DNA from: Alphaproteobacteria bacterium
GTDB taxonomy: Bacteria; Pseudomonadota; Alphaproteobacteria; UBA7985
Length of the DNA: 64,000 nt
Direction of reading: 5' to 3'
Assembly: GCA_965228345.1 (NCBI GenBank)
Contig: CBDDHH010000004.1
Location: 663,133-727,132, forward strand
In this document: in pieces, positions 3,970-45,348 of the stretch
Layout: each line of letters opens with the position of its first letter
Numbering within the stretch: position 1 is the first letter of the stretch
Made by a program: the position numbers and the translations under genes
Notes under the pieces: model-generated
What the model saw: only the letters and a program-made list of their open reading frames with translations
Database searches by the model: none
What the model was told of the DNA's origin: nothing

Positions 3970-3976
3970 GGGTCTA

Positions 3977-4924: not shown

Positions 4925-5018
4925 GGCCAATAGACCCGCTTCACGATAAACTGAAAAAGGGCTTTTGCATGCAAACAAGGTCTTGTCGAAGTCAGGTTTG
5001 GCTGATTCTAGCCTTTTT

Positions 5019-6268: not shown

Positions 6269-7432
6269 ATGAAACGTCGTGATTTTTTGGCGACAGCAGG
6301 CGTTGCTGGAGCCGTTGGTGTAGCAGCTGGCGTTGCTATTTCTCGTAGCACTGGCCCCGGGCGAGGCGACGATACTGACGGCCCCAGTGTCGAAGAGACC
6401 AGTCTTTCGACCCCTGCCCTTAACCCGGACCGTGTCCCTGTTGCGTTGGTCTCAACATGGCCGCGCGACTTCCCTGGTTTGGGAACGGGTGCGCAACGCT
6501 TTGCCGAACGGCTTTCGACTCTGTCTGACGGACGCTTCCAGGTGGAGTACTTTGCAGCTGGCGAACGTGTTGGCGCCTTTGATTCCTTTGATGCCGTGGC
6601 GTCGGGCGATGCCCAGGGATATCACGGCGCGGAATACTATTGGAAAGGCCGCCATCCAGGCTGGGCCTATTTCACTGCCGTCCCCTTCGGCCTGACCTAC
6701 ACTGAGCAAAACGCCTGGATCCGCTTTGGCGGCGGGCAAGAGCTATGGGACGAACTGGCCGGTGAGTTTGGCCTCAAAGGCCTCATGTGCGGCAACACGG
6801 GCGTTCAGATGGGCGGCTGGTTCAACAAGGAAATCAACTCCGCCGACGATTTGGCAGGCTTGAAGATGCGGATCCCAGGGCTTGGCGGTGACGTTATGGC
6901 CAAGCTGGGCGCCTCGCCCGTGTCCCTGCCCGGTGGCCAAATTTACGAAAACCTGATTTCTGGTGCCATCGACGCCACCGAATGGGTTGGCCCCTGGAAC
7001 GATGAAATCATGAAGTTCTACGAAGCCACGCAGTACTACTATTTCCCTGGGTTCCACGAGCCGGGCGCAGCGCTGGCTGCCACGTTCAACGCCAGCTGGT
7101 GGAGCGGCTTGAGTGCGACCGACAAGGCCCTAATCGAAGCCGCCGCAGCAACAGAAAACGACGTCATGATGTCTGAATACAATGCCAAAAACGGGGCAGC
7201 CCTTGCACGCCTCATCAACGATCAAGGGGTTGAGGTTCGCAAGTTTACCAATGACACCTATGATGCCTTTGGCGCCGCGTCAGACGAGGTCTTTGCCGAG
7301 GTCCAAGAACACTCTGACTTGGCCGCACGCATCCATGCATCGTTTTTAAAGGGTCGCCAAGATATCGGCGGTTGGACCAGCCTGTCTGACCAAGCCTACG
7401 TGGAGCAGCGCAACCGCGTACTCGGCGTTTAA
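6269..7432 (+). CDS. dctP: TRAP transporter substrate-binding protein, DctP family (Tat signal)
   Basis: GGAGGA Shine-Dalgarno. RRDFLATAGVAGAVGVAA Tat signal. Conserved FAAGERVGAFDSFDAVASGDA...VPFGLT...MGGWF...GLKMRIPGLGG...YENLISGAIDATEW...YYYFPGFHEPG. Confidence 0.85.
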   Translation: MKRRDFLATAGVAGAVGVAAGVAISRSTGPGRGDDTDGPSVEETSLSTPALNPDRVPVALVSTWPRDFPGLGTGAQRFAERLSTLSDGRFQVEYFAAGERVGAFDSFDAVASGDAQGYHGAEYYWKGRHPGWAYFTAVPFGLTYTEQNAWIRFGGGQELWDELAGEFGLKGLMCGNTGVQMGGWFNKEINSADDLAGLKMRIPGLGGDVMAKLGASPVSLPGGQIYENLISGAIDATEWVGPWNDEIMKFYEATQYYYFPGFHEPGAALAATFNASWWSGLSATDKALIEAAAATENDVMMSEYNAKNGAALARLINDQGVEVRKFTNDTYDAFGAASDEVFAEVQEHSDLAARIHASFLKGRQDIGGWTSLSDQAYVEQRNRVLGV

Positions 7433-7505: not shown

Positions 7506-8471
7506 ATGCCTTCTGCGTCGAAGGCTTTGGTTCCTGCCTTGCTGTCCGAGGCCTGGCATCCCCTTTGTCGCTTTTTTGCCTTGGCAATGGTCTTGGCTGC
7601 GGGCGCCTACGTTCTCAACAACTTCCTAATTCATATGGGCGCTCAGGCGCGGCTTCTGGACGGGGGTCTCCTCACCGCGACCATCTACGCTGTTGCTATG
7701 GGCGGTGCGCTATGGATGTCCTATGCGTGGCGTGATCGCCCGCTTGATCGCGTGTCAGAGGCGCTTTCAAGCGCCAATGAGACATTTATTCGCGGCGCGT
7801 TCTGGGCTGTCTTCCTTGTGGGGCTTGTCGATGCATCCATCTCGCTCTTGCGGATTGAGGGCTTGGCTCCCAACCTGTTCGGCGACGACTTGGCCGCCAA
7901 GCTGAACCGCCAGCACTTTCGCGGGGCCAACGCTCACTTCCCGCTCGTTCTTATCGGTTTTGCCTTGGCCTTTGTGACCCGCGGACTGGGCTTTATATGG
8001 CTGTCGCTGCTCGTCGTTTTTGCCCAGCTGGCCATCGTGATTATGGTGAACGTCTATTCCTATGAGCAAGCCTTCCTATCGGACTTAGTGCGTTTCTGGT
8101 ACGCCGCCCTGTTCTTGTTTGCCACGGCCCATACTCTATTGGCGGGGGGGCATGTCCGCGTCGATGTTGTCTTCGCCAACCTGCCCCAGCGCCAGAAAAA
8201 CTGGGCCAACTTTTGGGGCGTGTTGACGCTGGGTCTGCCGCTGGCCTGGGTCACATTGGTCGCGGGCACTTGGGACAAAACCCGCATTATCAACGCCCCG
8301 ATCCTAAACTATGAAATCGGTCAACAATCGGTCGGCGGGCTCTATATCAAGTACTTGATGGCGGGGTTTTTGCTGATCCTCGCCGTGACCCTCATTGTGC
8401 AATTTACCGCGCTTCTGCTCTCATCCGTGAATGACCAAGGACGCCAACACGCCGAAGGGGTGTCAAGCTAA
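7506..8471 (+). CDS. dctQ: TRAP transporter small permease (DctQ-like, extended)
   Basis: Polytopic membrane protein with the GGHVRVDVV motif characteristic of DctQ. Sits between dctP and dctM and abuts dctM. Confidence 0.7.
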   Translation: MPSASKALVPALLSEAWHPLCRFFALAMVLAAGAYVLNNFLIHMGAQARLLDGGLLTATIYAVAMGGALWMSYAWRDRPLDRVSEALSSANETFIRGAFWAVFLVGLVDASISLLRIEGLAPNLFGDDLAAKLNRQHFRGANAHFPLVLIGFALAFVTRGLGFIWLSLLVVFAQLAIVIMVNVYSYEQAFLSDLVRFWYAALFLFATAHTLLAGGHVRVDVVFANLPQRQKNWANFWGVLTLGLPLAWVTLVAGTWDKTRIINAPILNYEIGQQSVGGLYIKYLMAGFLLILAVTLIVQFTALLLSSVNDQGRQHAEGVSS

Positions 8472-11074
8472 TGGATCCCGCAGCCCTCTTTCTCGGTCTG
8501 CTCGTCATTCTGATGGCCGGGGCGCTCATATCAGGTTTTCCTGTTGCCTTTGCCCTGCCAGGGTCGGCGATTTTGACCATCGCGCTCGCGGCAGCGGCGG
8601 GGCAGATTTTTGCGAACGATGCCACGGCTTACTTCGCTATCAGTGGCGACAACGCCCTCAAAACTTTTTCAACCGGGGTCACCAACTTCCGCGCCATCTA
8701 TTGGGAACCCGATCGCGATACCCTGATCGCCATTCCGCTGTTCATCTTCATGGGCATCATGCTGCAGCGGTCCAAAATTGCCGAGGATTTGCTGATTACC
8801 ATGTCGCAGCTGTTCGGGCCTGTGCCGGGCGGGCTCGGGATTTCAGTTGTCATCGTCGGCGCGCTGCTGGCTGCGACGACGGGAATCGTAGGCGCCACTG
8901 TTGTTGCCATGGGGCTAATTTCCCTACCGCTCATGATACGCAACAAGTACAACATCCCCCTTGCGACGGGAACGATTTGCGCCTCTGGCACCCTTGGCCA
9001 GATCATTCCGCCGTCGATTGTACTGATTATTTTGGCCGACCAGTTGGCTTCGGCAGCCGACGCCGCCCAATCCCTGCGCCAAAATGCCTACGGCGCGGCC
9101 AATGACACCCTCGCCTCCTCGATGCCCACCGACCTAGCGGTGGGAACCGCGAGCGCTGGTGATATGTTCCTGGGTGCGCTCATCCCCGGCGCGGCACTCA
9201 TGGTGCCGATCTATATCCTCTATATACTAATCACCGCCCTCATCCGCCCAACGCTGGCACCGCCCGTGCGCTTCCAGGGGGATCGCCGCGGGTTTTTACG
9301 CGCGGTCCTCATGTCTCTTGTGCCGCCGTTGTTACTGATCGCCTTGGTTCTTGGGTCGATCTTGGCGGGCTATGCGACCGTGAACCAGGCGGGGGCGCTC
9401 GGCGCGTCGGGCGCCATTTTGATGGCCGGCTATCGCCTCATGGGTGCGTCGAAACTGCGCCACTTCGCGCCGGCGATTTTGGCCGTTGCGGCCATCTTGG
9501 GCTTGGGGGTCTTGCAAACGACCTTTGACCTCAACATCCGCGCGCCGCACAAGACCGCCAGCGATGTCCTGGGGTTGCTCATGGCGACGGGCCTGGTCGG
9601 AGTTTTGCTGTTCGCCCTGGCTTGGTCCACCTGGCGGATCTACACCTACGACGATGTGCTGCGCGAGGTTATGGTGGAATCGGCCAAAACTACCTCCATG
9701 GTGTTTTTGATCCTCGTTGGGGCGGCCATGCTGACGGCGGCTTTTCGCGCCTTCGGCGGCGAGCATTGGGTCAGAGACTTCCTCACCGGCCTACCAGGCG
9801 GGTTCATGACGCAGTTTTTGGTAGTAATGCTCGTCATGTTTGTCCTCGGCTTTTTCCTCGACTTTATCGAAATCGCGGTCGTGGTGGTTCCTATCACGGC
9901 GCCGATTTTGCTTGCGGACCCGACGGCTAATATTTCGGCCATCTGGCTTGGCATTATGATCGGCATTAACATACAGACCTCGTTTCTCACCCCGCCCTTT
10001 GGGTTTGCCTTGTTCTATTTGCGCGGGGTTGCCGACGCGTCGGTCAAAACTTTGCAAATCTATCGCGGAGTCGTTGTCTTTATTGCCTTGCAACTTGGCG
10101 CCTTGATGATCGTCGGGGCCAACGAACGCTTGGCGAACTTCATGCCGCGCTACGCTGCCTTGCTACGATCAACGGCGCCGCCGCCGGCACAACCAGCCTT
10201 GCAGCAGTGCCTGGAACCGCTCATGTTCACCGACGCGCTCGCCCGCGAGCCAGCAGCGCGGGCGGCTGCTGCGCAGCTTGAGGCACTCGATCTCTCGATC
10301 CTGCCCACGGATCAGGCTGATAAAATCCTGACCGCCAGCGCCAGCGTGGACAAGTCCTACGAACAGATCGCCCTGCTGCAAACTGCGCAATCGGCCAATG
10401 AAGCGGCCGCGAACCGTACTTGGGACATTGACGGCCAAATGTGGACCTACGCTGACCTCCATGCCCATGTGCGGCGGCGGGAGCGCGACGCCATTCGTGC
10501 GGGGATCGCGCCTAACATACCCGAGGGATGGGCGCAGGCCTTGGCCTTTGCCCAGGCCGCACAAAACGACGAAACCGCGGCCCGCAACGGCTTCCGTCGC
10601 CTTGACAAGGCCTACCGAGACCTTGAAGATGTGTTGACAGACTTGGGTCGCGCCGCGCCTTTAGTCACCCTTACGGACCAGGTCACGGCACTGGGGCGTC
10701 ACCTTGAACGTGCCGCCGGAAGCGAAATTGAAGCACTGCACCAAGAGCTCACGACGCTCAAGTCTGCGCTTTCGGCTATTGGCAACGTGTCGAACGTCAC
10801 AACCCCTTTCAGCAGAATCGATCGCGCCCTGCAAAGCACCCCGCCCGATCTAGAAACCGCGCGTGCGCTCTATAGAGAGATGGCGCAAACCTACGCCCAG
10901 GAAGTCGCATGGCGACAGGCAGGAACGGCAGATCTTGCGGATGCCTTGCAAGCCTTCCTGCGCGAAGTACAGGCGGGCGTAGCGATTCGAACCTTGGACG
11001 CGATCCCGACCCAGTACCGCCGCGACCTGGCTTGGTGCCTCTCGGGTCATCGCGATATTTCCCTTCGTTTCTAG
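8471..11074 (+). CDS. dctM: TRAP transporter large permease DctM fused to a ~300-aa C-terminal soluble Ala-rich helical extension
   Basis: The N-terminal ~560 aa is a typical DctM (many TM segments, ...FYLRGVAD...). The ORF then continues in frame for ~300 aa with high GC3 codon usage and no TM segments. Confidence 0.75.
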   Translation: MDPAALFLGLLVILMAGALISGFPVAFALPGSAILTIALAAAAGQIFANDATAYFAISGDNALKTFSTGVTNFRAIYWEPDRDTLIAIPLFIFMGIMLQRSKIAEDLLITMSQLFGPVPGGLGISVVIVGALLAATTGIVGATVVAMGLISLPLMIRNKYNIPLATGTICASGTLGQIIPPSIVLIILADQLASAADAAQSLRQNAYGAANDTLASSMPTDLAVGTASAGDMFLGALIPGAALMVPIYILYILITALIRPTLAPPVRFQGDRRGFLRAVLMSLVPPLLLIALVLGSILAGYATVNQAGALGASGAILMAGYRLMGASKLRHFAPAILAVAAILGLGVLQTTFDLNIRAPHKTASDVLGLLMATGLVGVLLFALAWSTWRIYTYDDVLREVMVESAKTTSMVFLILVGAAMLTAAFRAFGGEHWVRDFLTGLPGGFMTQFLVVMLVMFVLGFFLDFIEIAVVVVPITAPILLADPTANISAIWLGIMIGINIQTSFLTPPFGFALFYLRGVADASVKTLQIYRGVVVFIALQLGALMIVGANERLANFMPRYAALLRSTAPPPAQPALQQCLEPLMFTDALAREPAARAAAAQLEALDLSILPTDQADKILTASASVDKSYEQIALLQTAQSANEAAANRTWDIDGQMWTYADLHAHVRRRERDAIRAGIAPNIPEGWAQALAFAQAAQNDETAARNGFRRLDKAYRDLEDVLTDLGRAAPLVTLTDQVTALGRHLERAAGSEIEALHQELTTLKSALSAIGNVSNVTTPFSRIDRALQSTPPDLETARALYREMAQTYAQEVAWRQAGTADLADALQAFLREVQAGVAIRTLDAIPTQYRRDLAWCLSGHRDISLRF

Positions 11075-11077
11075 CTC

Positions 11078-12442
11078 TTGCATCCCGCGGCGGCCTTCAG
11101 AAACCTACCCATGGATCAGCTCTTCTTCGTCACGGAACCCGATGGGTTGCCCCCTGGGGTTGCGGCGCAGCTAGCTGCCAACGATTTTCAAGGCCACCCT
11201 GGCCAAGTCCAACGCCTGACCCAAGGGTATGGCAGCACGCACATCTACGTCGGCGCGACGGGAGGCACGCTTGGTTTTTGGACGGGAGCGAAAGCGTGCC
11301 AGGCCGCGCGAGGCTTAGAGACGATCCACGTTCAGAACGCCGACGTCTTGACCGAGACCCAAGTACAGGACTTCGTGCTTTCCTGGTCATTCGACTCGTA
11401 TCGCTTTGAGCGGTTCAAGGCTAAGGCTCGTCCCTGCGTTTGCGTGGGTCTTACTGCCAATGCACGCACCCAGGCCTTGGCCGAGGGCATGGCGTTGGCC
11501 CGCACCCTAATTAATACGCCCGCCAATCTTATGACTCCGGCGGGCTTGCAGGCCGCCGCGGAAACGCTGGCCCGCGACCATGCCGCGCAGATCGAGGTGA
11601 TTGACGGCGCTGATTTGCGCGCGGGCTTCCCGCTCATCGACGCGGTGGGCAAGGCCGCAGGGCCAGGGGACATGGCGCCGCGCTTGATCGATTTGCGATG
11701 GGGGCACGAAGGGCCACGGCTGACCTTGGTGGGCAAGGGCATTACGTTCGACACGGGCGGGCTCAACCTCAAACCTGGTGGATCCATGCGCCTTATGAAA
11801 AAAGACATGGGCGGGGCGGCCCATGCCCTGGGCTTGGCCGCGACGATCATGGCCCTTGCGATGCCCCTGCGTCTGCGAGTCCTGATCCCGGCTGCAGAAA
11901 ACGCGCTGGGTGCCGGGGCGTTCCGCCCTGGCGACGTGATCGCTGCGCGCTCGGGCAGCCACGTTGAAATTGACAATACCGACGCCGAAGGCCGCCTGGT
12001 CCTCGCCGATGCGCTGACCTATGCGGGCGAAGCTGAGGAGGCCGCGGACTTGACGATTAGCCTAGCGACCCTTACGGGTGCCGCCCGAGTGGCTCTAGGG
12101 CCGCACATCGCGCCCTACCTGACCAATCGAACCGACCTGACCTGGCAACTGCTGGCCGCAAGCCACGCCGAGGCCGACCCCCTCTGGCCCCTGCCTTTGT
12201 TCCAACCTTATGAGGCGTACCTGAAGTCCGACGTGGCCGACCTGGTGAACGCCGGCCCCGGCCGTTTTGCTGGCGCCATCACTGCCGCCTTGTTCCTTGC
12301 GCGGTTTGCGGGTGATCGGCCCTGGGCACACTTCGACCTCTATGGTTGGAATCCTGAGGCCAAGCCAGGGCGCCCTAGAGGCGGCGCGGCCCAGGGCCTC
12401 ATGAGCTTGCTGACTTTTTTGGAGTCCTGGGCCCATGACTGA
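11078..12442 (+). CDS. Leucyl aminopeptidase family protein (peptidase M17)
   Basis: VGKGITFDTGGLNLKP and NTDAEGRLVLADAL motifs of M17 aminopeptidases. Start may be the ATG at ~11111 (MDQLFF). Confidence 0.8.
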   Translation: MHPAAAFRNLPMDQLFFVTEPDGLPPGVAAQLAANDFQGHPGQVQRLTQGYGSTHIYVGATGGTLGFWTGAKACQAARGLETIHVQNADVLTETQVQDFVLSWSFDSYRFERFKAKARPCVCVGLTANARTQALAEGMALARTLINTPANLMTPAGLQAAAETLARDHAAQIEVIDGADLRAGFPLIDAVGKAAGPGDMAPRLIDLRWGHEGPRLTLVGKGITFDTGGLNLKPGGSMRLMKKDMGGAAHALGLAATIMALAMPLRLRVLIPAAENALGAGAFRPGDVIAARSGSHVEIDNTDAEGRLVLADALTYAGEAEEAADLTISLATLTGAARVALGPHIAPYLTNRTDLTWQLLAASHAEADPLWPLPLFQPYEAYLKSDVADLVNAGPGRFAGAITAALFLARFAGDRPWAHFDLYGWNPEAKPGRPRGGAAQGLMSLLTFLESWAHD

Positions 12443-13307
12443 GACCAAGCCCCAGCGACTCGCCAAGTGGATCGCGCAGTCGGGCCTCTGTTCCCGCCGC
12501 GTTGCAGAGGATTGGATTTTGGGGGGGCGGGTCTCGCTCGACGGGCGACCAACCCTGGAGCCTGCGCAAAACGTCGACACAGCTGCGCGCATTCGCGTTG
12601 ATGGAGCCGCCCTGCCCGACCCGCAGGCGATCCGCCTGTTTCGCCTGCACAAGCCGCGCGGCCTATTGGTGGCAGAACGTGATCCCCAGGGGCGGGCGAC
12701 TGTTTTTGAGGCCTTGCCCAAATCCTTGCCTCGCCTCCACGCGGTCGGACGTCTCGACCTCAATTCCGAAGGGTTATTGCTGCTGACCACCGATGGCGCG
12801 TTTAAGCGGCGCCTCGAACTGCCCGAAACGGGTTTGCCGCGCACTTATCGCGTGCGCGCCTTCGGGCGCTTGGGGCCACGCGAGGTGCGCCTCATGGCCC
12901 AAGGCCTTACGATCGACGGGCAAGTCTATGGTCCCATTGAGGCGAGGATCGAACCGCGCCCTGGCAAGCCCGAGCCGCCGCCCTACGCGGCCGCCAACCA
13001 TTGGCTGCGCATGACCCTGCACGAGGGTAAAAATCGCGAAATCAGAAAGGTCTTGGCGCACTTTGGCCTGCAGGTTTCGCGCTTGATCCGGGTTTCCTAC
13101 GGTCCCATTTCGCTCGGCAGCCTTAAGACAGGTGAAGTTCGGGAGGTAGGAAAGAAGGAACTGCAGACAGCTTTCGACCTAGGCCCACGGCCCCAAACGG
13201 GCTGGGCCAGAGCCAAACCGCGGCCTAATCGTCCTGGTCAACGCCGCCCCAAGCCATCTGCGAATCGACCAGGACCCGGGCGCACCAACCACAGCCGTGG
13301 CCGCTAA
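12435..13307 (+). CDS. rluB: 23S rRNA pseudouridine synthase, RluB/RsuA family (S4 domain + catalytic domain, basic C-terminal tail)
   Basis: QRLAKWIAQSGLCSRRVAEDWILGGRVSLDG (S4) and HAVGRLDLNSEGLLLLTTDG (PseudoU_synth_2 catalytic Asp motif). Arg/Pro-rich tail. Confidence 0.8.
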   Translation: MTETKPQRLAKWIAQSGLCSRRVAEDWILGGRVSLDGRPTLEPAQNVDTAARIRVDGAALPDPQAIRLFRLHKPRGLLVAERDPQGRATVFEALPKSLPRLHAVGRLDLNSEGLLLLTTDGAFKRRLELPETGLPRTYRVRAFGRLGPREVRLMAQGLTIDGQVYGPIEARIEPRPGKPEPPPYAAANHWLRMTLHEGKNREIRKVLAHFGLQVSRLIRVSYGPISLGSLKTGEVREVGKKELQTAFDLGPRPQTGWARAKPRPNRPGQRRPKPSANRPGPGRTNHSRGR

Positions 13308-13911: not shown

Positions 13912-14086
13912 CTCTTTTATTCGCTGGTATAAGGGCCGCGACTGCGGCCCCCGTAGCGGCCCCGAGATCGGCGCGAAAGCGCCTCGGGGTATAAGCGAAG
14001 GCCCCGTCGGAGGCGAAACGCATCGCGTTTCTGCCGTGAGACACGAAACGGCCATGAGAAGGTCACTTTTTATGACCGTTGGTATA
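13889..14086 (-). mobile_element. MITE copy R4
   Basis: CTATACCAGCGGCGATTTAAAATGACTC...GACCGTTGGTATAAG. Overlaps the rsmD 3' end. Confidence 0.8.
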
Positions 14087-14250
14087 AGACGGGATGAGCG
14101 CATTGCTTCGTGCCTTGTCCCTGTATCAATTGCTCCGATCAGCTTGTTAGCTGCTACAGCCAAGGCCCTCGGGATCGGTGACTTGCAAAACTTCCTTAAG
14201 ATCCTCAGTGTCTAGGGATAGCAACTTGAACGGTCGCTGGTTGTCGCGAC

Positions 14251-26095: not shown

Positions 26096-27571
26096 ATGTC
26101 GGCGCTTCTAAAATTATCCTTGTCGCAAGCGGCGGCCAAACTGCAGGCGCGGGAGGTCAGCGCGTCCGAGCTGGCACAGGCGGCGCTGACCGCCAGCCAA
26201 GACATGGATAACGGTGCCTTTGTAACGCCAACACCCGACTTGGCGCAGGCCATGGCGGCGGCGGCCGACGCCCGCCTGGCCAAAGGCGAGGCAGGGGTGA
26301 TTGAGGGCGTGCCGCTGGGCATCAAGGACCTTTTTGCGACCCAAGGTGTCAAGACGACATGCGGCTCGCGCATCTTGGAAAATTTCGTGCCGCCGTACGA
26401 ATCGACCGTAACGCAAAACCTCCGCGATCAGGGTGCCGTGTTTGTCGGTAAGCTCAATATGGACGAATTTGCCATGGGTTCGGCGAATCTGAACCCAACC
26501 TTCGGCCCCGTGACCAACCCCTGGCGCGGCGCCGACGGCAAGCCCCTGGTTCCGGGCGGATCCTCGGGCGGGTCGGCGGCGGCGGTTGCGGCGGGCCAGG
26601 TCTTGGGGGCCACGGCGACGGACACGGGCGGGTCGATTCGCCAACCTGCGGCCTTTTGCGGTGTGACGGGCCTGAAGCCGACCTACGGTCGCTGCTCGCG
26701 CTACGGCATCATCGCCTTCGCCAGTTCCTTGGACCAAGCCGGGCCAATCGCCCGCACCGTGGCCGACACGGCTTTGTTGCTCCAGGCCATGGCCGGGCAC
26801 GACCCTAAGGATTCGACCTCGGTCGATCACCCGGTCCCCGACTACGCCGCGCAGCTCGGCGGGTCGATCAAGGGCAAGAAGATCGGTGTCCCCGGGGAGT
26901 ACGTGGTCGCGGGCATGTCGGCAGAGATTTCGGCGCTCTGGGACCAGGGAAGGCAATGGTTGGCAGCGGCGGGCGCGCATCTAATCGACATGAACTTGCC
27001 CCACACCAAGTACGCCTTGCCGTGCTACTACATCATCGCCCCAGCCGAGGCGTCGTCGAACCTGTCCCGCTACGATGGCGTGCGCTACGGCCTGCGGGTC
27101 GATCCACCTGCAGACTCCGACGACAAGTTGCACGACATGTACCGCGCGACCCGCGCGGCAGGTTTCGGCGATGAGGTTCAGCGCCGCATCATGATCGGGG
27201 CCTATGTGCTTTCGGCAGGGTTTTATGATGCATACTACAATCAGGCGCGCAAGGTACGCACCTTGATCGCGCGCGACTTCGAACGGGCGTTCGCGGACGG
27301 GATCGATGCTATCCTAACGCCGACAACCCCCAGTCCCGCCTTCGCCATCGGCGACGAACCGAGCGACCCGGTGGAAATGTACCTGAACGATGTGTTCACG
27401 GTCCCCACGTCGATGGCAGGTTTGCCCGGTATCTCGGTGCCGGCGGGCTTGTCCAGCGATGGCAAGCCCTTAGGTCTGCAATTGATCGGCCAACCCTTCC
27501 AGGAAGGCGCACTTATGAATATAGCACAAAAACTTGAAGAAGCCGCCGCCTTCCCCTTTCTGGGGACCTGA
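26096..27571 (+). CDS. gatA: Glu-tRNA(Gln) amidotransferase subunit A
   Basis: Amidase signature [14 protein letters not shown] and ...[20 protein letters not shown]. 491 aa. Confidence 0.9.
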
Positions 27572-27600
27572 GCAAGCCTCCGTCAAAACTATTGCAGGTA

Positions 27601-27634
27601 TAAAAAAAAGACCCGCAATCGCGGGCCTTTCCTT
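27601..27634. terminator. Putative intrinsic terminator (possibly bidirectional) after gatA
   Basis: A-run, GACCCGCAATCGCGGGCC stem-loop, then TTTCCTT. Confidence 0.4.
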
Positions 27635-27661
27635 ACGTGCCAAAGAACGCCGTGAGTCCTT

Positions 27662-27887
27662 ATACCAACTCCGCTAAAAATTGACATTTTTAGCGGAGTT
27701 TTGTCTCACGGCAGAAACGCGTTGCGTTTCGGCTTTTGGGGTTGCGGTCTCACCTCGCTCGCTCAGCCCGACCGCGCCTTCGCTTATACCCCGAGGCGCT
27801 TTCTTAGCTCATCTCGGGGCCGCTACGGGGCCGCAGTCGCGGCCCTATACCAGTTCATAAAGAGTCTGTTTTAAGGAGAACTGGTAT
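27662..27887 (+). mobile_element. MITE copy R5 (variant with CTCGCTCGCTCAGCC segment and alternate terminal hairpin)
   Basis: CTTATACCAACTCCGCTAAAAATTGACATTTTTAGCGGAG...ATACCAGTTCATAAAGAGTCTGTTTTAAGGAGAACTGGTATTAG. Confidence 0.75.
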
Positions 27888-27897
27888 TAGACTTAAC

Positions 27898-28077
27898 CTA
27901 GAGGAACGCGCTGCCGTTTTTGCGGTTGCCGTTGCGGACGGCGCTCCAGATGTCCCCGCGCCCAATGCCCAGATCGTTCAACTCACGGTCGGAAAGCGTT
28001 TGCAATTCACGAGCAGCGCGGGCGTAACCTGCGTTCTCTGCCCAGTTGGTGTATGCGGTGCGTACAGCTTTGATCAT
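27898..28077 (-). CDS. DUF1127 domain-containing small protein
   Basis: Reverse translation MIKAVRTAYTNWAENAGYARAARELQTLSDRELNDLGIGRGDIWSAVRNGNRKNGSAFL contains the LSDRELNDLGI.R.DI signature of DUF1127. Confidence 0.7.
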   Translation of the reverse strand: MIKAVRTAYTNWAENAGYARAARELQTLSDRELNDLGIGRGDIWSAVRNGNRKNGSAFL

Positions 28078-28494
28078 TTTCTAGTCCTTTCATCTGCTCG
28101 TACACCCCTGGTCTTCAGGGGAAGAGGCGGCAGGGCCATGCTTGGGAGGAGATCTTCACCAAGGGTTGGGAGGAGGAGTTTGGTGAAGGGCCCCGCCGTT
28201 CTCTTGAAAAAAGATTTAGGGAGATGGTGGCAGAATTACCAATGCAAAAAATGCAAGGCAAGCCCCACCAAAGTGCAACTTGGCTCTCATTGATGCAATA
28301 TTCGCACAAACAACGAACCTTTCAGGAGAAAGGACCATTCTTTTATTACTTGCACAAACTGCAAGCCTTTCGTCTCCTAGTGTTGAGTGGGCATCTGCCG
28401 TGTCGCGACCTTCTCATTTGGGAGGCGCTGCGCTATGGAAACCTAGGGTTCGAGGGCCCTGGCAGTGTTTTGGGACCAAAAATTAGGAAGCAAC

Positions 28495-29574
28495 ATGGGA
28501 AGACAGCAGGACTGGCGGGTCAGCCGACGCGCGACTTTGGGGCTTGGCCTGGGTGCCAGTGCGGGACTGGCAACCCCGGCCTTGGCCAAAAAGGCAGGCC
28601 AAACTTGGACTCTGGTGACTTCCTGGGGCCGCGATGCGCCAGGCCCGGGCACCACGGCCCAACGCCTGGCGGACCGCATCACCCAAACCTCCAATGGCGA
28701 ACTGACCGTCATCCTGTTCGCGGCGGGGGAACGCGTTGGGGGCTTTGATGTGTTCGACGCCGTGTCCAGCGGGGACGCTCACATGGGCCATACCGCGAGT
28801 TTTTTCTGGACCGGAAAAGTCGGACAAGCCGCCGCCTTTTTCACCACCGTTCCCTTCGGCATGACCGCTGAACCATACGCAGGCTGGCTTTACCACGGCG
28901 GCGGACAGGCGCTGTGGGACCAGCTCTACGCCCCGTTTGGGCTCAAACCGCTTATGGCGGGTAATTCGGGCATGACCATGGGCGGCTGGTTTCGCGCGCG
29001 CCTTGACGGCCTTGGCGATCTTGCAGGTCTCAAGATTCGTGCGAGCGGTCTGGGCGGAGCCGTCTACACCAAGCTCGGCGCCGCCGTCGTTAGCCTGCCG
29101 CCCGCGCAGTTGTACGAAAATCTCAATTCGGGCGCTTTGGACGCCGTGGAATTTCTGGGACCGTTTTCAGACGCTGCCCTTGGGTTTTATCAGGCCGCAC
29201 CCTACTACTATCACCCTGGGTTCAACAAGCCTAATGGGCCCGCCGAAGCGCTGGTGAACCACGACGATTGGCACAACCTCGCGCCGCACTTACGCGAAAT
29301 CGTCGCCCAAGCATGCTTGGCGGAGAGTAGCTATGGCCTAGCCGAGGCGTGGGCCAACAATAGTCAGAAGCTTCGAGAATTGAGCGACCTGGGCGTAGAA
29401 TTGCACGCCTTCCCCGAGGAGGTGATGGCCGCAGCGGAGGCCGCGAACGCCGAGCTGATGCAAGAGCTCAAGCAGGCGTCGTCGCTGGCCGAGGCCATTC
29501 ACGATTCCTATTGGGCCTTCGCCGCGCGCGGCGCCGATCTCATGGCAGTGACCCAAACAAGTTTTCTCCGCTGA
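28495..29574 (+). CDS. Orphan TRAP DctP-family substrate-binding protein (Tat signal), paralog of the 6269 gene
   Basis: AGGAAG Shine-Dalgarno, then MGRQQDWRVSRRATLGLGLGASAGLATPALA. Same conserved blocks as the first DctP (FAAGERVGGFDVFDAVSSGDA...YYYHPGF). No permease genes adjacent. Confidence 0.8.
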   Translation: MGRQQDWRVSRRATLGLGLGASAGLATPALAKKAGQTWTLVTSWGRDAPGPGTTAQRLADRITQTSNGELTVILFAAGERVGGFDVFDAVSSGDAHMGHTASFFWTGKVGQAAAFFTTVPFGMTAEPYAGWLYHGGGQALWDQLYAPFGLKPLMAGNSGMTMGGWFRARLDGLGDLAGLKIRASGLGGAVYTKLGAAVVSLPPAQLYENLNSGALDAVEFLGPFSDAALGFYQAAPYYYHPGFNKPNGPAEALVNHDDWHNLAPHLREIVAQACLAESSYGLAEAWANNSQKLRELSDLGVELHAFPEEVMAAAEAANAELMQELKQASSLAEAIHDSYWAFAARGADLMAVTQTSFLR

Positions 29575-29580
29575 GGCCGC

Positions 29581-30996
29581 GTGTCCATCGCGACCGGTCC
29601 CCTTGTCCATTGCCTTACCAACGCCGTCACGGCAGGGTTTGTGGCGGACTGTGTCGCAGCAGTCGGCGGGCGGCCCCTCATGGCCGAAGACCCGCGCGAA
29701 TGCGCACAGCTGGCCGACTTGGCCGACGCGCTGGTCGTCAATCTGGGTCAACTCGACCCCCGCAAAGAAGAGGCTATTTGGGCTGCGGTGCGCGCGCGCG
29801 GTCATCGCCCCTGGACCCTCGATCCCGTCGCGGTCGGGGTTTTTCCGTCGCGCTTGACCCTTGCCCAGCGCCTTCTCTCCGCGCATCCACCAAACCAAAT
29901 TCGCGGCAACGCCAGCGAAGTATGGACTCTGGCGACGTGCCGCCCGAGCGGGTCGGGAACCGAATCAACCCAGCGCGCGCTAAAAAAACCAAAGCGCTTG
30001 CGCGATAGGCTTGCGGCGCGCGAAATCTGTGTCACCCAAGCGGACCAGCGGCCAGGCAAGCGCGATCTGTGCCTGGCTGGTGACCAGGAAACCTGGTACC
30101 CTGGCGGTTCACCGATTATGGGACAACTGCCCGGGTTCGGCTGCGCCCTATCAGCGGTTGCCGCAACCTTGCAGTCGGGCGACCGGGCCCTTAGTCTGTT
30201 CGGCGAGGTGGGCCGCGCGGCGGGGCGCGCTGGCATGGGTGCCTTCCGCGGGGCCTTTGTCAGCGCCCTAGCCAGCGCTAACCGCAAGACCCGCGCCCGC
30301 GCCGCCCTGCCCCTCTACTTTGTCGCAGGGCCGCAGGATTGCGGCGGTTCGCATGAGCGGCTGTCCAAAATATTGGCGGCGGCCCTCGCGGGCGGGATAA
30401 CCGCTTATCAATATCGCCCCAAGGCAATGAGTTCCAAGGTCGCGCGGTCCGCTGGGAGAACTCTCAGGGCCCAATGCGCGGCGGCGGGCGTGCCATTCCT
30501 GGTTAATGACGATCTCGACTTGGCCCTCGCCCTGGACGCCGACGGACTGCACTTGGGTCAAGGCGACGGGGATCCACAGGCGGCGCGCGCTGCCCTCGGC
30601 CCGCAGGCGATCCTGGGCCTATCAATCAGCAGCCCTGACCATTGGGCCTCTTATCGGGCTGACTGCGTTGACTATGCTGGCCTTGGTCCTTACGCCGATA
30701 CCGTCACCAAACCCGACCATAGGGCCCCCCTTGGTCACAGAGGGATGCAGCGCCTGCGAGCTTTGCGCCCTGAGGTACCCGCTGTAGCAATCGGTGGTGT
30801 TGGATTGTCCAACCTGCATCAAGCGTTAACAACGAGCGTAGATGGGGTCGCAGTCGTCAGCGCTCTGACCTCTGCGGATAAACCTGCAGAGCAAGCCCGC
30901 ACTCTTGCGGCTCTTATTTACGCAACAAAATCACACGGCTCGGAAAGCCGCCAGGCCGCCGATTTTGGGGTAGCTACCGCAAAATCGACGCATTAA
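29581..30996 (+). CDS. Bifunctional hydroxyethylthiazole kinase (ThiM, N-terminal) / thiamine-phosphate synthase (ThiE, C-terminal) fusion
   Basis: N-terminal LVHCLTNAVTAGFVADCVAAVGGRPLMAE...IRGNASEV...GFGCALSAVAA are ThiM motifs. C-terminal LYFVAGPQD...HLGQGDG...AIGGVGLSNL... is ThiE-like. Single continuous ORF, 6 bp after dctP-2. Confidence 0.65.
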   Translation: MSIATGPLVHCLTNAVTAGFVADCVAAVGGRPLMAEDPRECAQLADLADALVVNLGQLDPRKEEAIWAAVRARGHRPWTLDPVAVGVFPSRLTLAQRLLSAHPPNQIRGNASEVWTLATCRPSGSGTESTQRALKKPKRLRDRLAAREICVTQADQRPGKRDLCLAGDQETWYPGGSPIMGQLPGFGCALSAVAATLQSGDRALSLFGEVGRAAGRAGMGAFRGAFVSALASANRKTRARAALPLYFVAGPQDCGGSHERLSKILAAALAGGITAYQYRPKAMSSKVARSAGRTLRAQCAAAGVPFLVNDDLDLALALDADGLHLGQGDGDPQAARAALGPQAILGLSISSPDHWASYRADCVDYAGLGPYADTVTKPDHRAPLGHRGMQRLRALRPEVPAVAIGGVGLSNLHQALTTSVDGVAVVSALTSADKPAEQARTLAALIYATKSHGSESRQAADFGVATAKSTH

Positions 30997-31000
30997 GCTT

Positions 31001-31160
31001 ATACCAGTTTTTATAAATGGTGACCCATTCATGAAGATTTTTGATGTCACGGCAGAAACGCTTCGCGTTTCGCCTCCCCTTCGCTTATGCCACGAGGCAC
31101 TTTCTTAGCTATTCTCGGGGCTGCTACGGGGGCCGCAGTCGCGGCCCTTATACCAGCGGC
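31001..31160 (+). mobile_element. MITE copy R6 (variant left end ATACCAGTTTTTATAAATGGTGACCC), merging into the IS630-family left terminus
   Basis: Shares the GGCAGAAACGCTTCGCGTTTCGCC and GGGGGCCGCAGTCGCGGCCC hairpins. Its right end is the TTATACCAGCGGCGG sequence that also begins the adjacent IS630 remnant. Confidence 0.65.
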
Positions 31161-31460
31161 GGTAGCTTTTGACTCGTAGAAGTGTTTTTTCAACTAGGTC
31201 GTATTGTGATTCGTATTTCCCGCAAACAGGAGATACCTATGGCCATAGCAATCACACGCGCAAACCATAGCGCTAAGGATTTAAGAAAGTTTGCAGCGCG
31301 GAGTAAGGATCCCAAAGTTTCGCGCCGGGTACTAGCCATAGCGATGCTTATTGAGGGTAGTTCTTGTAAGTTTGCCGGTGAATGCTACGGCATGGATCGC
31401 CAAACACTTTGTGATTGGGTTCATCGTTACAATCTCGAACAGCCCTCTGCATAAGGAAGG
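31150..31460 (+). mobile_element. IS630-family IS remnant: left TIR + truncated transposase N-terminus (HTH)
   Basis: ORF 31239..31454 MAIAITRANHSAKDLRKFAARSKDPKVSRRVLAIAMLIEGSSCKFAGECYGMDRQTLCDWVHRYNLEQ matches IS630-family N-terminal HTH regions. Preceded by ATACCAGCGGCGGTAGCTTTTGACTC, which resembles the MITE TIR. Confidence 0.65.
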
Positions 31461-31506
31461 TTTCCAATTCAGGATTCCCGGCGATTGGGGGATGTGCTAT
31501 GTATTT

Positions 31507-31746
31507 GAGACCAGCGGCGATTTAAAATGACTCTTTTATTCGCTGGTATAAGGGCCGCGACTGCGGCCCCCGTAGCGGGCTCCAAGCCCGAAGGGCGTAG
31601 GGAACGCCTGCGCCAAAAACAAGCGGCCCCGAGATGAGCTAAGAAAGCGCCTCGGGGTATAAGCGAAGGGGCGGCGAAACGCGAAGCGTTTCTGCCGTGA
31701 GACATAAAACGGCTGAAAAAGTGTCAACTTTTTTCGCCGTTGGTAT
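31507..31746 (-). mobile_element. MITE copy R7
   Basis: Near-identical to R2. ...GTGTCAACTTTTTTCGCCGTTGGTAT terminus. Truncates the IS630 remnant. Confidence 0.8.
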
Positions 31747-31839
31747 TGGTTTTTTGTTTCTTGACCCAAGAATGCTCTTGCCTTCGACACACTTTTGCCG
31801 TCGGTACTTTAGGTGTTCGAGATTTTGGTGGAGGACTGG

Positions 31840-32652
31840 ATGGCATTTGCCGCGCTCATGGTGAGTGCAGCTCTGGTCGCCGGATTTTTAGCGGGTCTGT
31901 TCGGAGTTGGCGGCGGGGCCGTCATGGTACCAGTTTTTTCTGAAGTCTATGTTTGGGGCGGGACCGACCCGATTGTCGCGCAGTTTGTGGCCGTGGGCAC
32001 GTCCTTGGCCGTCATTGTTCCCACATCTCTGCGCTCAGCGCGGGCGCATCTGGCGGCGGACAACATCGAACGCCATGTCTTGCGGACATATCTTTGGTTT
32101 GTACCGTTGGGCGTCGTTGGCGCGCTCGCCTTCGCCACCTCAGACTGGGTTAAGGGCACCCAGGTGTTGCGGTTCACTTTTGGCGTCACTGCCGCGCTGA
32201 TCGCCGCGTACATGCTGTTGCAAGCCAAGGAGGCTCGCCGGCGCGATACCGGACCCACGCCGCCGCTGACGCAAATTGGGGCGACTGTGATCGGTTTTCT
32301 CTCGCTCTTGATGGGCATCGGGGGGGGCCTTATGAACAACCTGTTTATGATAGTTCAGGGCACGCCGATCAAGCGCGCCATCGGCACCTCAGCGGCGGTC
32401 GGGACCTTGATCTCTTTACCTGGGGCGTTGGGATTCGTTTGGATTGGCTGGGGGACGGCCGGGCTGCCGCCCTTCACTTGGGGCTATGTCAACTGGCTGA
32501 CGGTTCTGCTCGTGATCCCGATCACCGTTCTTGTGGCTCCCAGGGGCGCACGCCTTACCCAGCGCTTACCCGAGGCCCTGACCTCCCGTCTGTTTGGCGC
32601 CTTTCTGTTTCTGGTCGGAACGCGGATGCTCTGGACCGTCTGGCACGCCTAG
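31840..32652 (+). CDS. TSUP (TauE/SafE, DUF81) family membrane transporter
   Basis: Two internal repeats with the GxGGG motifs (LFGVGGGAVMVP and LMGIGGGLMNN). GGAGGA Shine-Dalgarno 4 nt before the ATG at 31840. Confidence 0.7.
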   Translation: MAFAALMVSAALVAGFLAGLFGVGGGAVMVPVFSEVYVWGGTDPIVAQFVAVGTSLAVIVPTSLRSARAHLAADNIERHVLRTYLWFVPLGVVGALAFATSDWVKGTQVLRFTFGVTAALIAAYMLLQAKEARRRDTGPTPPLTQIGATVIGFLSLLMGIGGGLMNNLFMIVQGTPIKRAIGTSAAVGTLISLPGALGFVWIGWGTAGLPPFTWGYVNWLTVLLVIPITVLVAPRGARLTQRLPEALTSRLFGAFLFLVGTRMLWTVWHA

Positions 32653-34608: not shown

Positions 34609-35526
34609 ATGAATAGATCATCTTTGCCGTGGCATCTGCTACAGAGTTTTTTGTCCTGCCTCGATCAGGGATCGCTGAGCGCGGCGGCGGCGCGCCTCAA
34701 GCTGAGCCAACCCACCCTTTCCCGGCACATTCGCGAGCTGGAAACCTTAATCCAGGGGCGTCTTTTCGTCCGGTCCCGCCAGGGTCTTCAGTTGACCACC
34801 CTGGGGCTAGAATTGGTTGAACCTGCGCGCGCCATGGCCGACGCTGCGGCCCAGATCAGCGCCCGACTGTCGGGAGCGGGGGCGGAGACAAGGGCGAGCG
34901 TACGCCTTACCGCCAGCCAGTACATGGCGACATTCTGGTTGCCCGAGATTCTCGTGGCCTTCCAGGCGCGTCACCCGCACATCCAGATCGAGCTGGTCGC
35001 CAACGATCAGACGCACAATCTGCTGCGGCGCGAGGCCGACATCGCGGTGCGCATGTTCCGGCCGACCCAAGATAGCCTGATCACACGGCACCTAGGCCAC
35101 ATCGATCTGTGCATGTTGACGACGCGCGCCTATTTGGCGACGCGCACGCCGCCGCAAACGCCCGAGGACTTGCGCGCCCATCGCCTGATTGGCGACGATC
35201 AACGCACCCTCATTATCGACGGCTTACGCGCCTATGGGTTGCGCTTTGGGCCCGAAGACTTTGCCTTACGTTGCGACGACCAAGTGACGGCGTTGCATTT
35301 GATCGCCGCAGGTGGGGGCATCGGTTTTGGCCAAGCGCGCCTTGCCGAGCGGTTTCCTAGCCTGATCGCCTTGCCCATCGGCGACGGCGCGCCGAAATTA
35401 CCGCTTTGGCTGACCGCCCACGAAGACTTGCGCAGCAATCGTGCCGTGCGGCTGCTCTATGACTTCTTGGCTGAGCAACTGGTTCAGGTGGTGATACCAG
35501 TTCTGCTTAACAAAGACTCCTTATGA
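34609..35526 (+). CDS. LysR family transcriptional regulator
   Basis: N-terminal HTH (LSCLDQGSLSAAAARLKLSQPTLSRHIRELE) plus LysR substrate-binding domain. Divergent from the oxidoreductase. Last ~10 codons are encoded by the MITE R8 terminus. Confidence 0.85.
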   Translation: MNRSSLPWHLLQSFLSCLDQGSLSAAAARLKLSQPTLSRHIRELETLIQGRLFVRSRQGLQLTTLGLELVEPARAMADAAAQISARLSGAGAETRASVRLTASQYMATFWLPEILVAFQARHPHIQIELVANDQTHNLLRREADIAVRMFRPTQDSLITRHLGHIDLCMLTTRAYLATRTPPQTPEDLRAHRLIGDDQRTLIIDGLRAYGLRFGPEDFALRCDDQVTALHLIAAGGGIGFGQARLAERFPSLIALPIGDGAPKLPLWLTAHEDLRSNRAVRLLYDFLAEQLVQVVIPVLLNKDSL

Positions 35527-35687
35527 ACTGGTGTAGGGCCGCGACTGCGGCCCCCGCAGCGGCCCCGAGACAAGCTAAGAAAGCGCCTCGGGGTATCAGC
35601 CAAGGCCCCGTCGGAGGCGAAACGCGAAGCGTTTCTGCCGTGAGACATAAAACGGCTGAAAATGTCAATTTTTAGCGGAGTTGGTAT
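35494..35687 (-). mobile_element. MITE copy R8
   Basis: ATACCAGTTCTGCTTAACAAAGACTCCTTATGAACTGGTGTAGGGCCGCGACTGCGG...GGAGTTGGTATTAG. Overlaps the LysR 3' end. Confidence 0.8.
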
Positions 35688-35689
35688 TA

Positions 35690-36302
35690 GGGTCCGTGGA
35701 CATTAGGGATTCCCATTTCTGCAAACTTGTGTTTCAAGCTTCCAAAACGGAGGTTTCAATGAACACAGATCGCTTTGTTGTCACAGATCAACTCTGGGAT
35801 AGGATTTCAGGGTTGATTCCAGGCCGCGATGGGGTTCGCGGTGTTACTGGAGAAGATAATCGTCTCTTCTTGGAGGCTGTGCTTTGGCGGGTGCGTGCAG
35901 GGCTCCCTTGGCGAGACTTGCCGCCAGAATTTGGCAAGTGGAATACTCAATTTCGCCGTTTCCGTCGATGGGCCGCAGCAGGTGTTTTTGAGAGACTTTT
36001 TGAAGCTCTAAACCAAGACCCCGACGTTGAATACGCTCTTATCGACGGCACTATGTTAAGCGTTCACCAGAAAGCCAGTGGCGCAAAAGGGGGGCTCAAA
36101 ATCAGTCCATTGGACGTTCAAGAGGTGGATTGACGACCAAGATCGTTGCCTTGGTTGAGGGCTTAGGGAACCTGGCCCGCTTCCTTCTGTTGCCTGGTCA
36201 AGCCCATGATATGCAAGGGGTCAAGCCACTCATAGAGGGCGTCTGTTTTGATGCTCTATTGGCTGACAAGGCTTTCGATGCAGACTGGCTTCTCGAAGAC
36301 TT
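35690..36302 (+). mobile_element. IS5-family (IS427-group) element, 3'-truncated: orfA (35759..36133) and N-terminal part of frameshifted orfB (36130..36300)
   Basis: orfA MNTDRFVVTDQLWDRISGLIPGRDGVRGVTGEDNRLFLEAVLWRVRAGLPWRDLPPEFGKWNTQFRRFRRWAAAGVFERLF (DUF4096-type). orfB fragment ...LARFLLLPGQAHDMQGVKPLIEG...ADKAFDADWL. The 5' ~200 bp is near-identical to the 54827.. copy. Truncated by MITE R9. Confidence 0.75.
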
Positions 36303-36493
36303 ATACCAACGGCGAAAAAAGCTGACACTTTTTCAGCCGTTTTATGTCTCACGGCAGAAACGCTTCGCGTTTCGCCGCCCCTTCGCTGATACCCCGAGGC
36401 GCTTTCTTAGCTCATCTCGGGGCCGCTACGGGGGCCGCAGTCGCGACCCTTATACCAGCGAATAAAAGAGTCATTTTAAATCGCCGCTGGTAT
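36303..36493 (+). mobile_element. MITE copy R9 (inserted into or abutting the IS427-like element)
   Basis: CTTATACCAACGGCGAAAAAAGCTGACAC...AAATCGCCGCTGGTATTATG. Confidence 0.8.
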
Positions 36494-43991: not shown

Positions 43992-44040
43992 TCGGAACCA
44001 AACGAAGACACATGGATGTGGGTCGTTCCATGATGCAGTT

Positions 44041-44238
44041 ATACCAACGGTCATAAAAAGTGACCTTTTCATGACCGTTTCGTGTCTCACGGCAGAAACG
44101 CTTCGCGTTTCGCCTCCGACGGGGGCCTTCGCTTATACCCCGAGGCGCTTTCGCGCCATTCTCGGGGCCGCTACGTGGGCCGCAGTCGCGGCCCTCATAC
44201 CAGCGATCATAAGAGTCATTTATAATTGCCGCTGGTAT
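44041..44238 (+). mobile_element. MITE copy R10
   Basis: ATACCAACGGTCATAAAAAGTGACC...ATTGCCGCTGGTATTAG. Its terminal TTA forms the folD stop codon on the opposite strand. Confidence 0.8.
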
Positions 44239-45098: not shown

Positions 45099-45109
45099 AG
45101 GAGCTTCTT

Positions 45110-45348
45110 ATACCAACGGCGAAAAAAGTTGACACTTTTTCAGCCGTTTTATGTCTCACGGCAGAAACGCTCCGCGTTTCGCCTCCCCTTCGCTGATACC
45201 CCGAGGTGCTTTCTTAGCTCATCTCGGGGCCGCGTGTTTTTGGCGCGGGCGTTCCCTGCGCCCTTTGGGCTTGGAGCCCGCTACGGGGGCCGCAGTCGCG
45301 GCCCTTATACCAGCGAATAAAAGAGTTATTTTAAATCGCCGCTGTTAT
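45110..45348 (+). mobile_element. MITE copy R11
   Basis: CTTATACCAACGGCGAAAAAAGTTGACAC...TTAAATCGCCGCTGTTATTAG, with an extra internal GC-rich hairpin. Confidence 0.8.

Follow-up and report, generated by a model that had tools for sequence, protein, structure and literature searches.

Comparative analysis of a 64,000-nucleotide stretch of alphaproteobacterial DNA (hereafter the window; positions 663,133 to 727,132 of contig CBDDHH010000004.1 in assembly GCA_965228345.1) led us to a pair of adjacent genes that probably constitute a thiazole-salvage module. The first codes for an orphan substrate-binding protein of the tripartite ATP-independent periplasmic (TRAP) transporter type, and the second for a single polypeptide combining hydroxyethylthiazole kinase (ThiM) with thiamine-phosphate synthase (ThiE). 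Close relatives of the binding protein are encoded with striking regularity beside thiM, and their functional coupling to thiazole/thiamine salvage is strongly supported. Judging from sequence conservation and gene context, we consider it probable that the binding protein is a receptor for a thiazole precursor of thiamine, most probably 5-(2-hydroxyethyl)-4-methylthiazole-2-carboxylate (cHET), which would work together with DctQ and DctM membrane subunits (DctQM) encoded elsewhere and with the fused enzyme.

An orphan TRAP receptor family linked to thiM

The evidence that carries the coupling comes from gene contexts. With two peptide motifs derived solely from the sequence of the binding protein, we scanned one genome per species (GTDB) and recovered 80 loci. 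In these thiM, thiE, DctQ and DctM were located by tblastn, non-redundant loci were counted, and thiamine pyrophosphate (TPP) riboswitches were scored with a strict motif combining CTGAGA with the 3' core of the riboswitch. Among the 79 loci whose relative shows at least 44% identity, thiM lies within 3 kb in 73 and thiE is present in 69, a TPP core stands upstream in 63, and DctM occurs within 3 kb in one. A contig end truncates each of the six loci that lack thiM, and thiM is present in 60/60 of the subset with at least 2.5 kb on both sides. The eight loci with more distant relatives (at most 41% identity; Acetobacteraceae) yielded no thiM, thiE or TPP core, and every one of them has DctM within 3 kb. 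Five family members that lack the two motifs, drawn from the homolog list, are likewise all encoded in thiM-(thiE)-thiD-SBP operons (SBP, substrate-binding protein gene). The constant partner of the family is thiM. Cultured bacteria that carry the family include Roseibium sp. Sym1 (P0036), Microbaculum marinum (L035) and Lutibaculum baratangense (L056). The coupling to thiazole/thiamine salvage that the first-pass annotation had proposed is borne out by these counts, and the orthologs did not prove to be linked to non-thiamine substrates.

Two operon layouts account for the association, namely thiM-thiE-thiD-SBP with overlapping stops and starts (e.g. locus L027) and SBP-thiM-thiE, along with minimal versions such as TPP-thiM-SBP (L036) and thiM-thiD-SBP (L030, L056, L086). 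Of 14 short loci searched with the Rfam model of the TPP riboswitch (RF00059; gathering score 54.3), 10 gave matches above that score, each time before the first gene of the operon, and in L018 and L023 the riboswitch lies directly 5' of the binding-protein gene. Two of the operons of motif-lacking members (L084, 7103-10216; L087, 7101-9517) extend into genes for an ATP-binding cassette (ABC) ATPase, a permease and an NMT1-family binding protein resembling ThiXYZ, and that of L084 additionally codes for TenA. Given that the ThiXYZ-like system and TenA serve the pyrimidine half of thiamine, the TRAP protein is left as the thiazole-side receptor, and such operons would combine receptors for both halves of the vitamin. 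Clustering of the open reading frames (ORFs) over 84 loci recovered no conserved membrane-protein gene inside the operons; the neighbors are lineage-specific (a molybdenum hydroxylase, EamA and a major facilitator superfamily gene on the opposite strand). In a neighbor-joining tree the window's clade, characterized by the fused enzyme, is sister to an SBP-thiM-thiE clade within the thi-linked family, and the DctQM-linked proteins, including the product of another DctP gene in the window (6269-7432), fall outside it.

The protein itself is a member of the DctP family, as had been noted in the first-pass annotation, which placed this second DctP-family gene at the coordinates that we retain. Its ORF, listed as 28465/28495-29574, encodes 359 residues when read from the ATG at 28495, which is preceded by AGGAAG and yields an MGRQQ start in common with an 88%-identical ortholog (L001). 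It scores 127.7 bits against Pfam DctP (PF03480; cutoff 23.4) and falls below the cutoffs of both NCBIfam TRAP_S1 and TIGR00787. The N-terminus, read by eye, carries a predicted signal for export to the periplasm, with an arginine pair (R11-R12) that is invariant across the window's clade and a likely cleavage site at ALA/KK. Searches with phmmer recovered as the closest structures in the PDB 7UG8 (Synechococcus), 5CM6 (Pseudoalteromonas), 4PET (Colwellia) and TakP of Rhodobacter sphaeroides (2HZK/2HZL), with e-values of 1e-52 to 1e-62 (2.4e-52 for TakP 2HZK). The AlphaFold model (pLDDT 89.4 overall, below 50 over residues 1-26) superimposes on these by Foldseek with TM-scores of 0.85-0.87 (0.85-0.86 for TakP) and root mean square deviations of 1.4-1.7 A. 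Database names for members of the family are generic, being those of TRAP or 'mannitol/chloroaromatic' binding proteins, and a search of a plasmid collection recovered only TakP-like matches of at most 44% identity.

Ligand pocket, candidate ligand and candidate membrane partner

To TakP and the other 2-oxo-acid TRAP receptors the window protein is related by fold and subfamily, including the long C-terminal helices, and differs from them in being partnered by thiM/thiE rather than by adjacent transporter genes. TakP holds pyruvate by Arg177, Tyr100 and a sodium ion, which is in turn coordinated by Gln156, Glu214, the carbonyl of Trp215 and Glu240 (PMC1839085). In the window protein Arg177 and Glu214 are retained as Arg182 and Glu219, and the remaining positions have changed: Tyr99/Tyr100 to Phe103/Phe104, Gln156 to Thr161, Trp215 to Phe220 and Glu240 to Lys245. 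Hence it lacks the TakP-type tyrosine contact with the ligand and keeps one of the three side chains (Gln156, Glu214, Glu240) that bind the cation. All of these TakP residues are kept in the product of 6269-7432. The equivalent of Arg182 (TakP Arg177; SiaP Arg147) is invariant in all 111 aligned proteins, and both it and the Glu214 equivalent are invariant in 101/101 thi-linked proteins. In the latter set the position of Tyr99 is always occupied by phenylalanine, leucine or valine and that of Tyr100 by phenylalanine in 97 of 101, as against a Tyr-Tyr pair in all the characterized 2-oxo-acid binders compared. Gln156 and Glu240 persist in most of the 101; in the window's clade and its sister, threonine or asparagine occupies the former position and lysine the latter.

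The conserved arginine confines TRAP receptors to carboxylates (PMC4646407). We favor cHET as the ligand because of this restriction, together with the fact that no other thiazole precursor is at once a carboxylate and a substrate of ThiM. Utilization of cHET requires ThiM; in E. coli sub-picomolar amounts suffice, against the relatively high concentrations needed of hydroxyethylthiazole (HET), and the source of these findings (PMC5899164) names no cHET transporter. By analogy, the ring nitrogen beside the 2-carboxylate would make cHET an alpha-imino-carboxylate, and in this respect a plausible mimic of the alpha-keto-carboxylate that TakP chelates by way of its cation. Two TakP-like structures from Bordetella (4YIC and 4YZZ) may hold picolinic acid, which would be an analogous ligand.

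These considerations suggest the following scheme. The first product would be exported by the twin-arginine (Tat) pathway to the periplasm, where it would serve as a high-affinity receptor for the thiazole precursor. The carboxylate of cHET, as the most probable ligand, would pair with Arg182, its alpha-imino-carboxylate moiety occupying the place of the alpha-keto-carboxylate in TakP-type proteins. The loaded protein would then dock on a TakP-type DctQM encoded elsewhere, for which the candidate within the window lies at 7506-11074. In the cytoplasm the ThiM domain of the fused enzyme would phosphorylate the thiazole alcohol, and the ThiE domain would couple the phosphorylated thiazole to hydroxymethylpyrimidine pyrophosphate, thereby generating thiamine monophosphate.

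The membrane partner deserves separate consideration. As the first-pass annotation had it, no DctQ or DctM adjoins the binding-protein gene: none lies within 17 kb of it in the window, where the sole pair (7506-11074) adjoins the DctP gene at 6269-7432, and none within 8-10 kb of its orthologs in L001-L005. The window pair, which the first-pass annotation had put forward as the partner, is a plausible candidate for that role. Its DctQ (321 residues) and DctM (867 residues) are longer than those of TakP-type relatives (about 175-200 and about 520 residues), and the homology of DctM ends near residue 560, leaving approximately 300 C-terminal residues without explanation. L087, the sole one of the 79 loci with DctM within 3 kb, has a TakP-type DctQM without DctP immediately after the thi-SBP operon and convergent to it. 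There an operon on the reverse strand (9514-12741), coding for a sigma-70 family factor, a ChrR-like cupin protein, DctQ and DctM, touches the convergent thiM-thiE-thiD-SBP-ABC operon. The L087 DctM is 53-57% identical to DctP-linked outgroup DctMs and 44.5% identical to that of the window.

Several alternatives have to be weighed against cHET uptake. The module could play the same role with HET, or another breakdown product of thiazole or thiamine, as its ligand. Linkage to thiM would fit any ThiM substrate, the Phe-Phe pocket is more hydrophobic than the Tyr-Tyr pocket of the 2-oxo-acid binders, and in the window's clade two of the cation ligands are replaced (Gln156 by Thr, Glu240 by Lys). 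Against this stands the family-wide invariance of Glu214 and of the carboxylate-pairing arginine, with the restriction on substrates ascribed to the latter, and we regard a ligand of this kind as unlikely. Even less can be said for an ordinary 2-oxo acid such as pyruvate, bound as in TakP and co-regulated with thiamine since TPP-starved cells leak 2-oxo acids. This would accord with the closest solved structures (7UG8, 5CM6, 4PET and TakP), all of which are cation-dependent 2-oxo-acid receptors binding their ligands with Na+ or Ca2+, and with the retention of Gln156, Glu214 and Glu240 by most thi-linked members. Yet the tyrosine pair that in TakP contacts the ligand and Glu240 has been lost throughout the family, the window's clade lacks two cation ligands, thiM persists as partner down to minimal thiM-SBP operons, and a canonical TakP-like protein is already encoded in the window together with a DctQM of its own; taken together these make it the least probable of the explanations considered.

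The missing DctQM could also reflect a role other than transport, in which periplasmic binding of the thiazole precursor would serve sensing, chemotaxis or retention. Such a role would be in keeping with the orphan status in 78 of 79 loci and with the lack of a conserved membrane-protein gene in the operons. However, no conserved sensor or chemoreceptor gene is found nearby either, the enzymes encoded in the same operons are cytoplasmic and require that the ligand has entered the cell, and L087 has its orphan TakP-type DctQM right beside the operon, so that we hold a non-transport role to be very improbable.

As for uptake of cHET itself, some of the observations weigh against it. The DctQ and DctM genes being unlinked in all but one of the 79 loci, transport would depend on a partner encoded at another site, and L087 is alone in offering one beside the operon. 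The cation site varies within the thi-linked family, mostly Gln156/Glu240 and in the window's clade and its sister Thr or Asn with Lys, and therefore the binding mode, and even the ligand, may differ between subgroups. Moreover, the window copy has no riboswitch in either the RF00059 or the clade-tuned scan described below. We nevertheless consider the thiazole-salvage module with cHET as its most probable ligand to be the likely explanation. That the family as a whole is the missing high-affinity cHET receptor of marine and soil Alphaproteobacteria, a 'roaming' and normally TPP-switched protein that borrows the DctQM of 2-oxo-acid TakP systems, is a more tentative proposal, to which we would give somewhat less than even credence.

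The ThiM-ThiE fusion, its leader and the window's clade

The gene that follows the binding-protein gene (29581-30996, forward strand; GTG start) is one uninterrupted ORF encoding 471 residues. The features of the region are collected in Table 1.

Table 1. Features of the salvage module and of the DctQM candidate (positions in the window)
Feature	Position	Strand	Basis
DctP-family, TakP-like orphan TRAP substrate-binding protein; candidate cHET receptor	28495..29574	+	Pfam DctP, PDB matches, AlphaFold, thiM/TPP linkage
Predicted Tat-type (twin-arginine) signal peptide, residues 1-31, SRRATLG ... ALA/KK	28495..28587	+	read from sequence
Spacer between the two genes, GGCCGC, 6 nt	29575..29580	+	sequence
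Hydroxyethylthiazole kinase (ThiM) domain	29593..30291	+	PF02110, 136.5 bits; PRK09355, residues 5-237; PDB 6JYY, E=3e-35
Thiamine-phosphate synthase (ThiE) domain	30313..30903	+	PF02581, 173.6 bits; TIGR00693; 2TPS family, E=6e-34
Lower-GC intergenic leader, 417 nt	28078..28494	+	GC 0.49-0.52, against about 0.62-0.65 in genes
Palindromic box CTTGCAcaaacTGCAAG (CTTGCA-caaac-TGCAAG)	28349..28365	+	found in leader
DctQ, the only one in the window	7506-8471	+	Pfam DctQ
DctM, the only one in the window	8471-11074	+	Pfam DctM

The 6-nt spacing, which recurs in L001, implies that the two genes would be co-transcribed, and the stop codon of the upstream gene is overlapped by GAGG, which could form part of a ribosome-binding site. 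In the fused protein the Pfam domains span residues 6-200 (HK, ThiM) and 245-429 (TMP-TENI, ThiE). The ThiE part scores 182.1 bits against the TIGR00693 equivalog model (cutoff 145.1), and the ThiM part falls below the cutoffs of the ThiM equivalog models because it is divergent. Using as reference the 21 columns conserved in at least 93% of 56 unfused ThiM homologs from related loci, we found that the five fused proteins all retain 17 of them and that the protein of the window retains 19; the residues kept include N54, D81, N110, E113, T152, D162 and G187-C188 of the Gly-Cys active-site loop. The conserved columns of ThiE are nearly all kept (e.g. Q277, R279, K281, N309-D310, H324, D329, T374 and K377). 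The fused enzyme is thus probably active.

The same fusion is encoded as a single ORF in four independent relatives (L001/L004, L002, L003 and L005), with 48-78% identity over the full length, and therefore it is not a frameshift artefact. The first-pass annotation had described a single ThiM-ThiE ORF 6 bp downstream of the binding-protein gene, had called for a check on whether the two genes are fused in relatives or separated by a frameshift, and had contrasted its domain order with that of THI6; these points all hold. Yeast THI6 (PDB 3NL2) likewise has both catalytic domains in one chain, but in it the ThiE part is N-terminal (aligning to residues 31-231), and the fungal THI6-type proteins have the order opposite to that of the window. 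Searches with the fusion protein recovered the ThiM-then-ThiE order in 11 clusters, all from the window's clade, and in one independent case (P0134). The fusion is accordingly confined to a small clade of uncultured Alphaproteobacteria, this one case apart. P0134 (L089, 5001-6437) is 478 residues long and 32% identical; gene calling gave no DctP-family member in the preceding 5 kb, and on the downstream side the contig ends within the neighboring gene.

Protein searches with the binding protein delineate the window's clade as a tight group of 68-100% identity (P0001-P0012), after which identity drops to about 54%. On four independent contigs (L001/L004, L002, L003, L005) the binding-protein gene is directly followed by the fused HK and TMP-TENI ORF; the first of these, L001/L004 (88% identity), is a 3.25-Mb chromosome of an uncultured alphaproteobacterium, and L003 is a TARA ocean scaffold. 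No thiD was found near the module in the window or in L001-L005. Upstream of it, the window has a divergent gene for a DUF1127 protein (27898-28077, reverse strand), and three relatives have a divergent ABC-F gene (L001, 6165-7847; L002, 6101-7795; L003, 5209-6891; all on the reverse strand). In these three, which were the relatives examined for it, the ABC-F gene is the conserved upstream neighbor of the module; it is not beside that of the window. The genes around the pair in the window are not those of L001-L003, so that the two have remained adjacent while their surroundings were rearranged; the missing ABC-F gene indicates that the window copy was relocated or that its neighborhood was rearranged.

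The intergenic leader had been described as about 400 bp of lower GC without a TPP riboswitch, and this description stands. The covariance search with RF00059 that the first-pass annotation had called for came back empty for 27500-31900 at E<=10 and for the whole window at the gathering score, and a clade-tuned covariance model (R1, from the sister clade with L002 and L005) gave no match in the window either. Directly before the start codon of the binding-protein gene, shortened sub-threshold TPP matches are found in L005 (9906-10002; 38.2 bits) and L002 (7914-8009; 30.2 bits), and the aptamer is undetectable in the window, L001 and L003. This distribution indicates an ancestral riboswitch that in the window's clade is decaying or lost. 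A fold of 301 nt gave a z-score of 0.08, with no sign of unusual structure, and another structured leader RNA was accordingly rejected; a scan of the leader for sigma-70 promoters returned no site.

Of the two leader motifs proposed in the first-pass annotation one has survived. The palindrome on its own is weakly significant (a match in 21 of 100 shuffles), and a homologous CTTGC[AG]..[CT]GCAAGG box lies upstream of the binding-protein gene in L001, L002, L003 and L005, the window copy having a longer loop. In these four relatives, as read from the sequences, a spacing of 17 nt separates CTTGCR (CTTGTC in L003) from a downstream CTAnnT/TTAGAT hexamer, and the hexamer pair resembles alphaproteobacterial promoters. 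The box with its CTTGCA is probably a promoter element (-35-like), an operator, or both. The repeated TTGCACAAAC, by comparison, was rejected as a regulatory repeat, its 5 matches standing at chance level (4.3 expected).

Relation to known salvage systems and genomic surroundings

Periplasmic binding proteins that act in thiamine salvage or uptake are already represented by ThiXYZ/ThiY and ThiBPQ/TbpA, which like the present family are commonly under TPP riboswitches. They bind the pyrimidine moiety or thiamine itself. They differ from the window protein in having the NMT1 or type-II ABC binding-protein fold, and their ATP-driven partner is encoded alongside. Comparable in logic are ThiW and ThiU, which Rodionov et al. 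reportedly predicted in 2002 to be thiazole transporters from gene clustering with thiM, the same kind of evidence as is used here. Both are integral membrane proteins (an energy-coupling factor S-component and a permease, respectively), as opposed to a periplasmic TRAP receptor, and to our knowledge neither has been tied to a carboxylated thiazole. A further parallel is offered by Bug27 and Bug69 of Bordetella, orphan receptors of the periplasm that belong to the tripartite tricarboxylate transporter (TTT) family and bind quinolinate, a heteroaromatic carboxylate from which a cofactor is made (PMC11452294). These differ from the window protein in belonging to the TctC/Bug family and in serving NAD.

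The fold family is already known and the enzymes are ordinary. What appears to be new is the family-wide tie of an orphan TakP-like receptor to thiM and the TPP regulon, the substrate class which this implies, and the rare ThiM-to-ThiE fusion. In the full-text literature, with subscription journals incompletely covered, we found no published link of TRAP or DctP proteins to thiazole salvage. Vitamin B1 is beyond the biosynthetic capacity of many marine microbes, which subsist on its precursors; among these, cHET has been reported to be a key exchanged thiazole that is used at picomolar levels (PMC5899164). A family encoded with thiM, thiE and thiD behind TPP riboswitches in dozens of alphaproteobacterial lineages offers a concrete and easily expressed candidate for its uptake. 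If the proposed function is correct, this would be the first TRAP system for a vitamin precursor, widening the substrate range of these transporters, and would imply that the inheritance and regulation of a TRAP receptor can be separate from those of its channel. It could further provide a metagenomic marker for thiazole scavengers, and a scaffold for biosensors of cHET in seawater and thereby of the marine vitamin B1 cycle. The fusion and the apparently decaying riboswitch of the window's clade are smaller points bearing on the evolution of the module.

The surroundings of the module are rich in repeats. A dispersed intergenic repeat of about 80-200 nt, resembling the repetitive extragenic palindromic (REP) or miniature inverted-repeat transposable element (MITE) families, is present in at least 15 copies in the window and in several copies in L001/L004. 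Two copies bracket the module (27658-27860 and 30997-31173) and others lie at 1088-1250, 1571-1780, 3974-4134, 13922-14088, 31541-31746 (reverse strand), 35521-35691, 36300-36460, 44039-44205, 45107-45315, 58692-58848 and 63680-63802. The flanking copies (27658-27846 and 30997-31173) were considered as borders of a mobile element and rejected as such, the repeat being genome-wide and also present in the sister genome. Beyond the module, a 90-residue ORF (31182-31454, forward strand) contains a helix-turn-helix alone (HTH_23/HTH_29), like the N-terminus of a transposase, and is flanked by inverted repeat copies (31038-31158/31541-31709) whose arms are 88-100% complementary. Elsewhere in the window we detected an ALIL pseudoknot (57162-57278, reverse strand; RF01497, 67.1 bits), the frameshift element of the IS3 family, and a DDE transposase (DDE_Tnp_4; 4965-5873).

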